A stretch of DNA of 12,303 nt from a virus (taxonomy: Duplodnaviria > Heunggongvirae > Uroviricota > Caudoviricetes), in IMG/VR virus record IMGVR_UViG_2671180673_000008. One strand, 5' to 3'. The number at the start of each line of letters is the position of its first letter. The stretch's first letter is position 1. Shown here in pieces: positions 2,038 to 7,212 of the stretch. Position numbers and translations under genes: made by a program. Below the pieces are notes generated by a model. It worked only from the letters and a program-made list of their open reading frames with translations, did not search any database and was not told the origin of the DNA.

Positions 2038-2352
2038 TTATTCTGGGAATAAGGTCTGAATATTCTTTTTTATTTTATAAAAATTGCATTCAACTCCGCT
2101 AGGCTGATTATCCTGGTATGTTTCCTTGATGCTAACGGTATTGAAGGGGAGGTTGTCCTCTGGCCATTCGGCCATCCAGTAGGCAAATGCTGGGTTGCGC
2201 TTTATGAGCGCTAGCCCAGCCAGAAAGGCCGCGCGTTGCGCGCGGCTGCGTTCGGAGGCTGGCAGGCTATCGAGGTAATTGCACGCCTCCTGTTCACTCT
2301 TGACGGCGGCGGGCTTCAGATAGAAACTTATCCGTCTGGTTGGTGTCGTCAT
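2038..2352 (-). CDS. parR: ParR-like centromere-binding adaptor (plasmid R1 ParR/StbB family), 104 aa
   Basis: From internal ATG at 2352: MTTPTRRISFYLKPAAV...LDSLPASERSRAQRAAFLAGLALI resembles R1 ParR (...TIAFKLNPDV...LDSIPQGERSRLNRAALTAGLALY) as I remember it. AAGGAG 8 nt upstream. Starts 4 nt after parM stop. The 149-aa track ORF (2038..2487) overlaps parM and is taken as an over-extension. Confidence 0.7.
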   Translation of the reverse strand: MTTPTRRISFYLKPAAVKSEQEACNYLDSLPASERSRAQRAAFLAGLALIKRNPAFAYWMAEWPEDNLPFNTVSIKETYQDNQPSGVECNFYKIKKNIQTLFPE

Positions 2353-2356
2353 TGGT

Positions 2357-3316
2357 TTACTCCTTGTCCATTGCGTACAGCCCATTAACCAGAGCAAACT
2401 GTGGCACCCCGTCCGCGATGAAAGTCGCATTAACTCCGCAGACTTCGCGGATAGCGGGTGCCACAATCTCCGCCCCTCCACCGACAACCATCACCCGCCC
2501 GTAACCCGAAAAAACCGCCAGCGCGCGGATCACGCGTTGTTTCAGTGTTTCTTCCTTTTCACGAATAACCGCCATCAGGCTGGCGTAATGCGCGTCATTG
2601 TGGATGTGCTGGCGCAGCCAGGCTTCATCATGGCGATGTTCGATAATGGTATTGGCGATGTGGTGACTGGTGCGCATACCGTTAGTGGCCATCACCGACA
2701 GTACGGCATCGGCCATCAGGGAAACGCCTACGTGTGGATCGCAAAACACCTGGCTGATACCTGCCAGTTGCCCTTGAACCTTTGCCACATCCAGCGTGGT
2801 TCCGCCTAAATCCACAATCAGCAGGGATTCAAACGGACTCATGTCAGCCAGTGCTTTAAAGCCAGCCGGAATGGATTCAGGCATAACCCGCACGTTACGG
2901 ATAGTGAATGCTTCGCCGTTCTGGTATTCCACCGGGCGCATAACGTTCGCTTTTTTGCGGTTGATGTTGGCCATGTCCGGCTGTGCGTTTGTGTCGAAAT
3001 ACTCGCTCAGTGGCAGGGTGACAACCACATCCACCTCCTGTGGCGTGATGCCTGATTTGACCAGCGCGTGATGAATGGCGATTACATTCACATCGCTGTA
3101 CTGGTATTGCGTGTCGGTCGTCTGGACAAAGCGATCGCTAACCGGATCAAAACCATAGCGCACGCCATCAAGCATGTAGTTCGCGGGCTGCATGCCACCG
3201 AACGGCGCAGACCATTCCGACTTGAAGCTGTTCGGGCTGATGGCGTTGCGGCGTTCGCCATTCTCAGTCCATGCCAGCTTGATGTTGGTGGAGCCGTCGT
3301 CGATACAAATTTTCAT
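2357..3316 (-). CDS. parM: ParM/StbA-like actin-fold partition ATPase, 319 aa
   Basis: N-terminus MKICIDDGSTNIKLAW...ISPNSFKSEW...YSDVNVIAIHHAL closely matches R1 ParM (MLVFIDDGSTNIKLQW...ISPNSFKREW...YSDVNVVAVHHAL) from memory. AAGGA RBS about 9 nt upstream of ATG at 3316. Confidence 0.8.
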   Translation of the reverse strand: MKICIDDGSTNIKLAWTENGERRNAISPNSFKSEWSAPFGGMQPANYMLDGVRYGFDPVSDRFVQTTDTQYQYSDVNVIAIHHALVKSGITPQEVDVVVTLPLSEYFDTNAQPDMANINRKKANVMRPVEYQNGEAFTIRNVRVMPESIPAGFKALADMSPFESLLIVDLGGTTLDVAKVQGQLAGISQVFCDPHVGVSLMADAVLSVMATNGMRTSHHIANTIIEHRHDEAWLRQHIHNDAHYASLMAVIREKEETLKQRVIRALAVFSGYGRVMVVGGGAEIVAPAIREVCGVNATFIADGVPQFALVNGLYAMDKE

Positions 3317-3345
3317 GTCGCTTTTCCTTATGTTGATTAATTAAT

Positions 3346-3386
3346 CGTTTACGGGATTCTGAAATCCCGTTTTTGCCTGTTTTGTG
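3346..3386. repeat. hairpin-repeat copy 1, intergenic between gpA and parM; candidate parC-like centromere/operator or + strand terminator
   Basis: cgTTTACGGGATTctgaAATCCCGTTTTTGCCTGTTTTGTg. Contains perfect inverted repeat ACGGGATT/AATCCCGT followed by a T-rich tract on the + strand. Confidence 0.6.
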
Positions 3387-3392
3387 CGCGCT

Positions 3393-6215
3393 TCATATAT
3401 CGCTGCGCGTTTTTTGCTCATTTACGGGATTCGTAAGTCCCGTTTCTGTCTGTTTTTTGTTTCCACTGGTCAGGCCACCCCGCAGCAGGTCTGCTTTGCG
3501 GCTGGCGCGTTCAGTGGTTTCACTGATTCTCTGTGCGTGCTCTGCGTCGCGGATGGCGCGCAGCATGTCAGAAAGCACGGTAACGGGTGTTTTCATGGTG
3601 TTCTGGCCCTGCTGAAGTGTGGATGCCAGGCGTGCGGCGGCTTCAGGGTCTGATGCCCCCAGCTGTGCCAGATAGCTGGCGACCGGGTTATGGCGGATCT
3701 CCGTGCTGCTTACGCCATGATTACGGCTCAGGCGCTGCCAGAGCTGCGTGATTCGGCTGTCCGGGCGGGTATCCGGTTTGCGTACAATTTCAAATCCCTG
3801 CGGTGCAATGATGCTGCCGTCAACGTACAGACTGCCGCCCCGTAACAGGTGCTGCATCTGTTGTTCACCGATATGCAGGCCGAGAGATTCAGCAGACTCC
3901 CGCCATTCTTTAGCGAGTAATTCGTGGTTATCAGGCAAAGGCCGCTGCTGTTTGCGGCTCTGTGTCCAGCTCTGCATTTCATCGCTGCTGTTTTTTGCCT
4001 GTTTGTCACGAAGCGAACGCATCAGCGCCCGGCGTTCGTGTCGTTTCAGTGAGCGCATCCATTCGTTCACTTCAACGCCGTCAGGGAGCTGCGGCCACGG
4101 TGCTGGCCGTTCTTCCGGCTGTTCTGTCCCGTTGTTGTCCGTTTCCTGTACACGGGGACAGTTATTGCCACGAGTCCAAGGGGCGGCAGGGCCGCCCTGA
4201 AGGTCAAAACCATTTTCGCGGGCGCTGTCTTCCGCTTCCGGTTTACGTCTTACCAGCTTCCAGTTATCCGGATGCGTGCACACACGGGAGGATTCCCCGA
4301 TGAGTGGTGACCAGATCCCGTAAATCTGTACGCTCTGTTCGCCGTAATCGTTCAGCTCATCTGCGAGGTCGTAGGCGGTGCGAATCAGGTAGTCCTTGCG
4401 TGGAACAAGCACGCCACCCTGTTTTTCAATGTAGGTGGCAAAACACCCGGCATCGGCGGCAGCGAGTACCGCATCCATTGCATCATCTTTCAGCCGTTGC
4501 GGGCCTTCCGGATTGCGTGCCATCTGGCTGGCAAGGCGGCGCAGTTCACGCCACACCTGACGGGAGGGGATGCCAAAGAACTGGAACTGACGGACCCGGT
4601 GAAGGCGCGCCCAGCCGATGGCGCGCTCCACGCTCTCGGCCATTGATTTTCCGGTTTCGTGGTCCACGCGTGGCTTGCCCGTTTTCGGGTCGATGCCATC
4701 CACGGCGCGGCTGTCCAGGTTCTTTCCGATGTAGGTGGCGATGTAGCTGGTTGGCGTGCCTTTTGAGCCGTCGACATACTCCACCTTAAAGCGCGGAGTA
4801 ATATCATTGCCCAGCTCGTGGCGGTCTTCCTGAATGGCAATATCGCGGGTATGGGACACAATGGTGTCGATTTCTTCCGGATGTGCAAAGACCATCATAT
4901 GCCAGTGCACGGTGCCGTCATGATGAGGCTCCACCGTGCGGATGCCATACCAGCGCAGGCCGTCGCGGTTCAGTTTTTTGCGGACCGCCGCAAAAAACGT
5001 GTTAACCAGGTAATCGCTGGAGTCGCGCATTGTGGCCCCGTTCCATTTGGGATTCGGATGACCGTTCTCCGTTGTGGCGTGGTATTTTGACGGGCAGGTG
5101 ACAGTCAGAAACACCGCTTTGTCGCCACGGGCTTCGGCCAGAAGTTCCAGTCCCTTCATGGTGGCCATCATTTCTGCCTTACGGTGAACCGGGTTACTTA
5201 CTCCCGCGTAATACACTGTCTCGAGATCAATCGTGAACCCGTCTTCATTTTCCAGCATGAAACTTTTCAGGAAATCGCGTGTTTTCTCGCGCTGTGCGCG
5301 AAACTCGCTTAACGCGTCCTGGCTCAGATAGGGTGATGTTTTTCTGGAAACCAGACAGGCGGCGCGGAGTTGTTCTTCTCTCCACTCGCAACGTAACAGC
5401 CACAGTTTGCGTTTCCACCATTCCGCACAGGTCAGGCGAAGGATTGCGCCCGGCAGCAGCTCCGTGTCCGGTTCGTTCCTCCGGTCTTTGTCTGTTGTCA
5501 GTGCGTCATAATGTGGAGGCATGGCGTGCAGGTGTAACGCCATGCGGGCCAGCATCTGATACGCCTTCAGGGTTACATCCATGGTCAGCTCGCCATCGGT
5601 CGCGCCAAAGCCATCGCAGAGTTTTTCGAAGGTGCTGCTGAACATCGCCGCCGTCATGGTGGCCAGCGTCTGTATCTGGTGTTTGTTGAGCTGCGGCAGG
5701 TAAAGCAAATCGTCCAGGCGTTCGCGTCCGGCAAGGGAGCGATAACCCGGTGTCAGCCAGCGTCCGTCAGTGCTATCCAGACGTTCGAATATTTTGCGCA
5801 GGGTTCCGCGTGCATAGCGTTCCGCCTGCCAGCTCTTTTTGCCTTTCCGGCGATCGGCTTCCTGTTTTTTGCGCAGGAAGGAGAGGTGGCGAATAAGCGG
5901 ATCGCGCAGATAGGACGGCAGCAGGCGCAGCGAGGCCATGGCTTCATCCACCGCGCCACGTGCCTGTTTTCTGGCGTCTCCTGCCAGTGTGATGGTTTTG
6001 TCCTGTTTTTCCTGTGCGTCCAGGCTTTTATTAATCAGGTTGCCCAGCGGCGTGGCTGAGAACGCCGCATCAGCCATTTCCTGGCGGCGCTCGTTCTCTG
6101 CCCGGTAGGCATCCAGCCAGGAGGAAAGCGCGGATTCAGGAGCGGGGATCCCCGTTCCTTCACGCCCCACTGCGTGGCGCGGTTGTTGCCAGTCCCTGAG
6201 GTACTCTGCCGTCAT
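3393..6215 (-). CDS. rolling-circle replication initiation endonuclease, phage P2 gpA family, 940 aa
   Basis: Conserved blocks recalled from P2 A: LTVTCPSKYH, TVEPHHDGTVHWHMMVF (HUH metal-binding motif) and TSYIATYIGKN (paired catalytic tyrosines). ATG at 6215 lies 6 nt after the stop of the upstream ORF. Confidence 0.85.
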   Translation of the reverse strand: MTAEYLRDWQQPRHAVGREGTGIPAPESALSSWLDAYRAENERRQEMADAAFSATPLGNLINKSLDAQEKQDKTITLAGDARKQARGAVDEAMASLRLLPSYLRDPLIRHLSFLRKKQEADRRKGKKSWQAERYARGTLRKIFERLDSTDGRWLTPGYRSLAGRERLDDLLYLPQLNKHQIQTLATMTAAMFSSTFEKLCDGFGATDGELTMDVTLKAYQMLARMALHLHAMPPHYDALTTDKDRRNEPDTELLPGAILRLTCAEWWKRKLWLLRCEWREEQLRAACLVSRKTSPYLSQDALSEFRAQREKTRDFLKSFMLENEDGFTIDLETVYYAGVSNPVHRKAEMMATMKGLELLAEARGDKAVFLTVTCPSKYHATTENGHPNPKWNGATMRDSSDYLVNTFFAAVRKKLNRDGLRWYGIRTVEPHHDGTVHWHMMVFAHPEEIDTIVSHTRDIAIQEDRHELGNDITPRFKVEYVDGSKGTPTSYIATYIGKNLDSRAVDGIDPKTGKPRVDHETGKSMAESVERAIGWARLHRVRQFQFFGIPSRQVWRELRRLASQMARNPEGPQRLKDDAMDAVLAAADAGCFATYIEKQGGVLVPRKDYLIRTAYDLADELNDYGEQSVQIYGIWSPLIGESSRVCTHPDNWKLVRRKPEAEDSARENGFDLQGGPAAPWTRGNNCPRVQETDNNGTEQPEERPAPWPQLPDGVEVNEWMRSLKRHERRALMRSLRDKQAKNSSDEMQSWTQSRKQQRPLPDNHELLAKEWRESAESLGLHIGEQQMQHLLRGGSLYVDGSIIAPQGFEIVRKPDTRPDSRITQLWQRLSRNHGVSSTEIRHNPVASYLAQLGASDPEAAARLASTLQQGQNTMKTPVTVLSDMLRAIRDAEHAQRISETTERASRKADLLRGGLTSGNKKQTETGLTNPVNEQKTRSDI
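3418..3460. repeat. hairpin-repeat copy 2, inside the last ~22 codons of gpA
   Basis: TTTACGGGATTCGTAAGTCCCGTTTCTGTCTGTTTTTTGT. Imperfect direct repeat of copy 1, about 73 bp away, with inverted repeat ACGGGA/TCCCGT and a T-tract. Confidence 0.6.
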
Positions 6216-6890: not shown

Positions 6891-7069
6891 GGTGTGGCCC
6901 CTTGTGTAGTAAGTTGTGAAAACTCACCATCCAGAGCTGCGAAACTGTGGGTGGCGAGACGTACGAGGTTCGCAGTACCGGCTACACAAGAACCCGGCCC
7001 GACCGAAGTCGGCCCCGTACGCCCCGCCATAATTCTGACGCGAAAAAAACGTGGCAATACAGTACGCAC

Positions 7070-7090
7070 AAAAAAACCGCTGGCGCGGTT
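7070..7090 (-). terminator. intrinsic terminator on the - strand inside the early gene string
   Basis: Minus-strand reading AACCGC gcca GCGGTT followed by TTTTTTT (+ strand AAAAAAACCGCTGGCGCGGTT). 6-bp GC-rich stem, 4-nt loop, 7-U tract. Confidence 0.6.
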
Positions 7091-7212
7091 GTGCGCTTGT
7101 GTAGTCAGCAGGCTGCGAAACCCGGCACCCGTTTTATGAGGTGCAGCGGAAATGTAACCTGACTGATTGCGGCATGGCAAGCGGTTTTTTTGTGTGTGCA
7201 TGCTCTGGTTTC

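Follow-up and report, generated by a model that had tools for sequence, protein, structure and literature searches.

A 12,303-nucleotide stretch of DNA from a tailed virus (Caudoviricetes; IMG/VR virus record IMGVR_UViG_2671180673_000008), the whole of which is here called the window, carries an element at about 3340-3465, at the 3' end of the replication gene gpA. As judged from the sequence, this element probably serves as the centromere, parC, in an R1-type ParMRC (type II) partition cassette, which lies directly downstream of gpA. The sequence-only reading of this DNA had noticed two ~40-bp hairpin-plus-T-tract repeats straddling the gpA stop codon, exactly where a parC centromere would be expected upstream of parM. 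Both observations held. Two 42-nucleotide (nt) copies were found with the gpA TGA between them, and a predicted centromere was supported by its position, its architecture, its linkage to parMR in natural recombinants, its absence from a gpA relative without parMR, and a motif kept across lineages. The element is an expected part of a known system, found in an unusual layout and in an unusual host element.

Anatomy of the repeats

The genes gpA, parM, and parR are directly consecutive in this order, all on the minus strand. The features of the element and of the three genes are as follows.

3393-6215, minus strand: gpA-like rolling-circle replication endonuclease, 940 amino acids (PF05840, Phage_GPA, 4.9e-131), the frame of which enters the distal repeat block
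3418-3459, minus strand: distal repeat block (copy 2), within the last 22 gpA codons; CAAAAAACAGACAGAAACGGGACTTACGAATCCCGTAAATGA on the parM-sense strand
3424-3443, unstranded: palindrome 2, ACGGGAC-TTAC-GAATCCCGT, made of two inverted WWWACGGGAY-type half-sites
3387-3417, minus strand: 31-bp core between the blocks, with the gpA stop TGA (3393-3395), a short CGCGC-N13-GCGCG palindrome, and no promoter consensus
3345-3386, minus strand: proximal repeat block (copy 1), intergenic; CACAAAACAGGCAAAAACGGGATTTCAGAATCCCGTAAACGA on the parM-sense strand
3351-3370, unstranded: palindrome 1, ACGGGATT-TCAG-AATCCCGT, its center 44 bp upstream of the parM ATG
3328-3461, minus strand: helically phased A-tract array, with A-tract ends at 3452, 3442, 3420/3421, 3409, 3379, 3369, and 3347
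3317-3344, minus strand: parM leader, with a conserved TTAATCAACATAAGGA element and the Shine-Dalgarno sequence AAGGA at 3329-3325
2357-3316, minus strand: parM, actin-like segregation ATPase (PF06406, 2.7e-82; PF21523, 1.1e-68)
2038-2352, minus strand: parR, StbB-type ribbon-helix-helix adaptor, 104 amino acids (PF10784, 1.9e-28), with a realistic start ATG at 2352

The two copies are direct repeats, identical at 35 of 42 positions (83%) and 73 bp apart from start to start, and the proximal block ends 29 bp short of the parM ATG. This pair was the best short-range direct repeat in the window; in 200 dinucleotide-preserving shuffles, the mean was 25.3 matches and the maximum was 29. Each copy holds a palindrome with 8-bp arms of the general form ACGGGATT-N4-AATCCCGT. 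Palindrome 1 has eight perfect pairs, and palindrome 2 has seven Watson-Crick pairs, its remaining position forming a G.U wobble on the plus strand and being mismatched (C.A) on the minus strand. Across 67 haplotypes, the GGG/CCC pairs were unchanged and the loops were variable (TTCAGA, TTAAAA, TCACAA, and CTTACG). In the parM direction, the block consensus reads CA(A/C)AAAACAG(A/G)C-A(G/A)AAACGGGA(C/T)-loop-(A)ATCCCGTAAA(T/C)GA. The core between the blocks is not conserved, and its sequence varies among relatives (GCGATATATGA or CATAAAACATGA).

The half-site WWWACGGGAY was matched four times in the window against 0.33 expected, and three of these matches lie within the element, the remaining half-site of which, outside the exact matches, is GAAACGGGAC. 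Counted in candidate repeat units, the element consists of two 42-bp blocks, four WWWACGGGAY-type half-sites, and seven phased A-tract/AAAC units. The exact match outside the element, TTTACGGGAT at 4315-4324 on the minus strand, lies inside gpA, 860 bp upstream, and may be a chance match.

The ends of the A-runs (three or more A) are spaced by 10, 22, 11, 30, 10, and 22 bp, which are near multiples of 10.5. A motif-free phasing statistic, the power at 10.5 bp in a Fourier analysis of A-tract end positions within 126-bp windows, was computed for both strands of the whole stretch. It peaked at 3328-3461 with a value of 0.34, compared with a median of 0.01 and a best value of 0.12 on the other strand. 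At R1-type parC, the same statistic had its locus-wide maximum directly upstream of parM (0.46 in the IncF plasmid locus L001 and 0.35 in L115), and in the Serratia and Enterobacter prophage lineages it likewise peaked ahead of parM. The DNA of the element is presumably intrinsically curved, as R1-type parC is, with A-tract phasing serving as the proxy for curvature.

Linkage of the repeats to parMR

Comparing gpA C termini with a relative that lacks parMR bore out the connection between the repeats and the partition genes. In Escherichia coli 14EC001 (L243), gpA has the same C-terminal domain, parMR is missing, and both hairpins are absent. The last residues of the protein are ...GNSEKKK*; in the alignment, the stop falls at the first codons of copy 2, so that gpA ends where copy 2 would begin. 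Thus, the repeats come with the partition cassette, and the gpA frame in the window overran its ancestral end. Natural recombinants gave a matching picture from the other side: in L072 and L242, the upstream open reading frame (ORF) is a different one, and homology to the window resumes exactly at 3457, in the first bases of copy 2. In IMG/VR, the exact palindrome pattern was located within 200 bp of the parM start in 80 of 86 loci, and four of the loci away from the parM start are contig ends or truncated genes. All phage database records that share the last ~140 residues of gpA also carry parMR. The two-copy state was kept in 82 of 83 close loci. Orthologous copies are far closer to each other than are the two copies of one locus (83%), and the duplication is therefore old and has been retained.

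The last ~140 residues of gpA (3460-3816, residues ~800-920) were met in the phage database only in phages with parMR. L072 and L242 have, in place of this part of gpA, a separate cysteine-rich ORF, which also reads into repeat copy 2.

It had also been proposed that copy 2 acts as coding sequence in addition to its other roles. It does encode the C terminus of gpA: the ORF (6215-3393) ends at the TGA between the copies, and copy 2 with the next 22 nt makes up the last 21 residues. In most haplotypes the tail reads ...GNKKQTETG(L/F)TNPVNEQKTR(S/R)DI. A third function of the DNA was not supported. The tail is frameshifted or deleted in about 6 of 68 haplotypes: single-base indels in A-runs shift the frame in L032, L071, L035, and L079/L082, and a 73-bp deletion between the copies in L024 removed one repeat copy. 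An indel of this kind was found once more, in addition to these haplotypes, in the isolated phage Chuche. Diversity at codon positions 1, 2, and 3 was 0.064, 0.021, and 0.039 in the tail, compared with 0.023, 0.024, and 0.067 in the preceding part of gpA; the tail is without the usual third-position excess of variation. Because frameshifts and deletion recur and this excess is missing, the tail appears dispensable as a peptide. The overlap of gpA with the repeat looks like a by-product of fusion.

Conservation across prophage lineages

The order gpA-parM-parR recurs in P2-like prophages of Hafnia, Plesiomonas, Serratia, and an Enterobacter-type lineage, which were drawn from protein and genome collections; when the phage database was searched for divergent ParM, nothing beyond the P88 clade and the P1-like phage D6 came up. 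The ParM identity to the window was 62% in Hafnia (with one extra ORF), 62% in Plesiomonas, 58-59% in Serratia, and ~54% in the Enterobacter-type lineage. The core motif AAAAACGGGA, in noncoding DNA, was kept in the E. coli, Serratia, and Enterobacter-type prophages, the ParM proteins of which are only 54-59% identical. In the Serratia prophage L087 (ParM 59% identical), the stretch ACAGGCAAAAACGGGA of copy 1 is identical to that in the window. In the Serratia and Enterobacter-type loci, the arm AAAAACGGGAACGAWATAGAAAAAT and the inverted arm ATTTTTCTRTTTCGTTCCC are conserved around a variable core.

The two remaining lineages share less of the sequence. In Hafnia, a CGGG-N10-CCC palindrome is retained, and its distance from parM is unchanged. 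A repeat of a different sequence, 26 nt long (GCGGGACAAC...), is found in Plesiomonas; its two copies are spaced by 72 bp, and gpA again terminates between them. This repeat was the best in its 9-kb locus, and none of 500 shuffles of the 260-bp upstream region reached it. Since Plesiomonas and Hafnia are without extended pairing, a requirement for the hairpin is argued against. In plasmid relatives with a ParM that is ~50% identical, iteron blocks flank a core upstream of parM in all cases. A short motif and a layout that are conserved while the remaining sequence changes would fit a protein-binding centromere.

The variable core in the Serratia and Enterobacter-type loci (L087, 3887-3940; L161, L162, and L367) always retains a small GC hairpin, the sequences of which differ (GCCGCCAGCGGC, TAGCCAGACGGCTA, and AACTAGCAGGACGGCTAGTT). 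This variation could reflect compensatory maintenance of structure.

Among the parM loci, enterobacterial ones nearly identical to those of E. coli phages or IncF plasmids were also found in assemblies labeled Vagococcus, Streptomyces, Clostridiales, and Micromonospora (L089, L116, L117, and L157). These are probably contamination.

Promoter search and points against a centromere

The sequence-only reading had considered a combined role of the DNA as centromere and operator, and the operator part was not borne out. A search of the parM strand over 3800-3316 gave no sigma-70-like promoter (at least 9 of 12 matches), the best relaxed match being 7 of 12. The core is not conserved. R1-type parC has a clear promoter in its core. 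A weak promoter with its -35 box in the palindrome loop may exist. Because the core holds no promoter, transcription of parMR probably depends on read-through from the early (gpA) operon.

The missing promoter counts against a parC centromere, and several other points weigh in the same direction. ParR binding to the element and stabilization by it are predictions from the sequence. The element has two long palindromic repeats rather than the 10 plain 11-bp direct iterons of R1, and the reading of AAAC units as subiterons is our own parsing. No A-tract phasing was seen upstream of parM in Plesiomonas with the same statistic. The repeats are missing from one parMR remnant (L244), a deletion derivative that has lost gpA as well and whose deletion junction falls within copy 1. 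The repeats are only modestly constrained within the E. coli clade: segregating sites made up a fraction of 0.24-0.38 in the repeats and 0.44-0.60 at third codon positions, and the nucleotide diversity of the repeats was similar to that of third codon positions. The signal of purifying selection within the clade is weak because divergence is low. Finally, the gpA-parC-parM region is nearly always chromosomal (1,531 chromosomal places versus 2 plasmid places in complete E. coli genomes), so the classical role in plasmid stability does not apply as such. The IncC plasmid pC-Ec2-KPC holds one copy of the region.

Alternative explanations for the repeats

It was considered whether the repeats are tandem plus-strand intrinsic terminators, which would block antisense or convergent transcription, from the genes at 575-1954 or from antisense starts in parMR, before gpA and the early operon. 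This is unlikely as the main role, and termination could be a secondary function beside the centromere. In a terminator-pattern scan, both hairpins and their T-rich tails matched on the plus strand, where stems of eight pairs (four of them G-C) with 4-nt loops are followed by a U-rich tract in the form of an intrinsic terminator. RNA folding gave about -10 kcal/mol on either strand. R1-type parC gave no terminator-like match, so a parC does not inevitably bring such a pattern with it, and no canonical hairpin-plus-U-tract follows directly after the plus-strand genes, the GC hairpin at 1966-1989 being without an adjacent T-run. Thus far, the antisense terminator suggested earlier is real as a plus-strand pattern. 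The function itself fared less well. The nearest plus-strand ORFs end at 1954, with this strong and nearer GC hairpin directly after them, and the intervening 1.4 kb is antisense to parR and parM. The repeats are not at the 3' end of any co-oriented plus-strand transcription unit in the window, in agreement with the earlier remark that no plus-strand gene feeds into them. Of 68 haplotypes, 28 have A.C mismatches in the plus-strand stem of copy 1, at two pairs in 14 of these 28, and no compensatory double substitutions were found at any stem pair in the haplotype comparison. In Plesiomonas and Hafnia, GGG-N10-CCC is all that is kept of the palindrome, and pairing beyond it is slight or absent. 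In addition, the T-tails are the complement of the phased A-tracts and are already explained by a centromere, and the repeats covary with parMR, not with plus-strand genes; the downstream genes differ in Serratia, Hafnia, and Plesiomonas.

More doubtful still is a role at the RNA level, in which the hairpins would act in the minus-strand polycistronic gpA-parM transcript, either in its processing or stability or in setting the gpA:ParM ratio. The minus-strand folds have energies of -10.7 and -9.0 kcal/mol with z-scores of -3.9 and -3.1, all common variants of copy 1 retain G.U pairs on the minus strand, and without a separate parM promoter a polycistronic RNA is likely. However, copy 2 behaves in the opposite way, with variants that are mismatched on the minus strand (35 cells) and form G.U pairs only on the plus strand. 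Covariation favors neither strand for an RNA structure, the copies showing opposite strand bias. On the minus strand, no U-tract lies 3' of either hairpin, and Rfam 15 gave no match at an E value of 1 or less between 3300 and 3500 on either strand. The hairpin structure is not conserved in Plesiomonas or Serratia, whereas the DNA motif AAAAACGGGA is, and the 10.5-bp phasing would be left unexplained.

The least likely explanation is a functionless scar, that is, a 73-bp tandem duplication or a recombination joint from insertion of the par cassette behind gpA: the single-copy derivative L024 exists, several recombination junctions are located at the repeats, and the within-clade nucleotide diversity of copy 1 is about neutral, but Plesiomonas shows a two-copy arrangement with the 72-73-bp spacing in which the repeat sequence differs, lineages with ParM identities of 54-62% have the core motif in common, two copies are present in 82 of 83 close loci, and neither the invariant GGG/CCC positions nor the A-tract phasing would be expected of a scar.

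The repeats were also considered as the origin or nick site of the P2-type gpA, and this candidate was rejected with the parMR-less gpA relative L243, which has no repeats. The sequence that we take to be the P2 gpA cleavage site had no match with up to three mismatches, a result that is uninformative, as this presumed sequence may be wrong.

Comparison with known partition systems

The parC site of plasmid R1, which belongs to the ParMRC (type II) partition system, was reportedly described by Dam and Gerdes in 1994. In L001, an IncF plasmid locus with R1/R100-type StbA/StbB, A-rich 11-bp iterons (AAAACCCAAAA and similar) form two blocks around a core upstream of parM, and the core contains a clear promoter (TTGACT-16-TAAACT). 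R1 parC itself consists of two sets of five 11-bp iterons with 39 bp between them that hold the promoter, 159 bp in total (PMC2241845). It is strongly curved, and about one ParR dimer is bound per iteron (Hoischen et al. 2008, PMC2241845). Like R1 parC, the element lies directly upstream of parM-parR, has two repeat blocks around a core, and is made of A-rich, helically phased, presumably curved DNA. The ParM proteins are homologous (47% identity), the ParR proteins are 36-40% identical, and an ATAAGGA parM leader is common to both. Unlike R1 parC, with its two sets of plain iterons, the element is built from two 42-bp palindrome-bearing blocks and is ~115 bp long. Its core measures 31 bp instead of 39 bp, has no promoter where that of R1 is autoregulated, and contains the stop codon of the upstream gene. 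In addition, its distal block is within a coding region, and its host replicon is an integrating phage.

Other ParMRC centromeres used for comparison were parC1 and parC2 of pB171, the four 20-bp repeats of pSK41, and the parC families of Clostridium perfringens (PMC9426499, together with background knowledge). The element resembles these in having lineage-specific repeats that adjoin parMR and would be recognized by a ribbon-helix-helix ParR, which here is a prediction, and in combining fast sequence divergence with a stable layout. In contrast, those centromeres are direct repeats in plasmid promoter regions, and neither palindromic half-site pairs nor a coding overlap occurs in their described form.

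For an integrated prophage, the closest functional precedent is, by analogy, the AlpAC system of prophage CGP3 in Corynebacterium glutamicum. There, the adaptor has its binding site upstream of the operon that encodes it and, during replication, connects circular phage DNA with actin-like filaments (Donovan et al. 2015, PMC4446434; PMC5539076). CGP3 (AlpA/AlpC/alpS) and the E. coli prophage both combine an actin-like filament protein with a DNA-binding adaptor in an integrated prophage. In CGP3, the adaptor site is just upstream of the operon, and expression occurs early after induction. The two systems differ in that neither their actin-like lineages nor their adaptor families are related (AlpA does not belong to PF10784) and in that CGP3 has a Gram-positive host and its site lies in a promoter region. 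The function was shown experimentally for CGP3, whereas that of the E. coli prophage system is a prediction. CGP3 AlpAC was the only studied parallel that was found (PMC4446434).

Proposed mechanism and significance

In the proposed mechanism, parMR would be read through from the gpA operon, so that ParM and ParR would be produced only after infection or induction. Ribbon-helix-helix dimers of ParR would bind cooperatively to the two 42-bp blocks, each of which may be viewed as an inverted pair of WWWACGGGAY half-sites set in helically phased A-tracts, and the two blocks would be seven helical turns apart on intrinsically bent DNA. The ParR-DNA complex would then capture the growing ends of ParM filaments, and circular phage DNA would be moved or separated. 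The gpA frame simply reads on beyond the position of its ancestral stop, through the distal block, and terminates at the TGA of the core.

A narrower proposal on the purpose of the system is possible and can be offered only tentatively, being rather improbable. Here, the cassette would be a phage-adapted ParMRC without a promoter, its centromere fused to the end of the replication gene, and would be made only with the early operon. It would serve to position or separate monomeric circular replication products or a P2-like genome that is not yet integrated, rather than to stabilize a plasmid prophage.

The gpA-parC-parM junction was found in 1,371 of 5,426 complete E. coli genomes (about one quarter), including O157:H7 strains. 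Under the tentative proposal above, a chromosomal copy of the putative parC in these genomes might also titrate ParR, or it might make incoming relatives incompatible at the level of partition. The cassette is common in E. coli chromosomes. A defined cis site makes the role of a plasmid-type actin segregation machine in an integrating phage testable. The element also offers a natural example of a putative ParR-type centromere that uses palindromic half-sites on phased A-tracts and has no operator promoter. No described centromere for P88, phiSM, or CP-933T was found in a literature search; the element is undescribed in the searched literature, and no centromere is given in database annotation. 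The partition genes of P88-like prophages received passing mention only in the literature found (PMC6456863).

Phage context and neighboring genes

The Escherichia phage vB_EcoM-569R5 is 100% identical to the window, and phage P88/Xuanwuvirus is 97-98% identical. By these sequence matches, the window is assigned to a P88/Xuanwuvirus-type P2-like temperate phage. A tyrosine integrase and a helix-turn-helix repressor are encoded at the opposite end of the window, and the phage is therefore an integrating one.

The phage ParR is 36-41% identical to plasmid ParR/StbB proteins, and over residues 6-57 it aligns weakly with the ribbon-helix-helix domain of pB171 ParR (structure 2JD3). By eye, the N-terminal type of ParR showed no association with the repeat variant: each ParR type was found together with each loop variant, and thus these polymorphisms are not specificity determinants. 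Among loci (L003-L090) with ParM proteins 97-100% identical, the C-terminal half of ParR occurs in at least four sequence types that differ greatly from one another. All of these types have the N-terminal strand RRISFYLKP in common, as well as the final residues ..NIQxxFPE. Mosaic exchange within parR seems to have taken place.

Upstream of gpA, in the early region, Rfam matches were obtained on the minus strand for C4 antisense RNA (6947-7034, 83 bits, E value 1.4e-15) and isrK (7070-7144, 65 bits, E value 2.1e-12). Both are RNA immunity or antirepressor-control elements of the P1/P7/P4 type, met here in a P2-like phage.

Two convergent accessory genes of low GC content are located on the plus strand at 575-1072 and 1112-1954. 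They encode a DUF4760 protein and a 280-amino-acid membrane-like protein with a weak Csx27-like PADLOC match (E value 1e-5). The GC-rich hairpin GGCACCCT-N7-AGGGTGCC at 1966-1989 lies between these genes and parR. In relatives, the position of the accessory genes is occupied by other cargo, namely, HicAB in L087 and an AAA ATPase with an S8 peptidase in L243.

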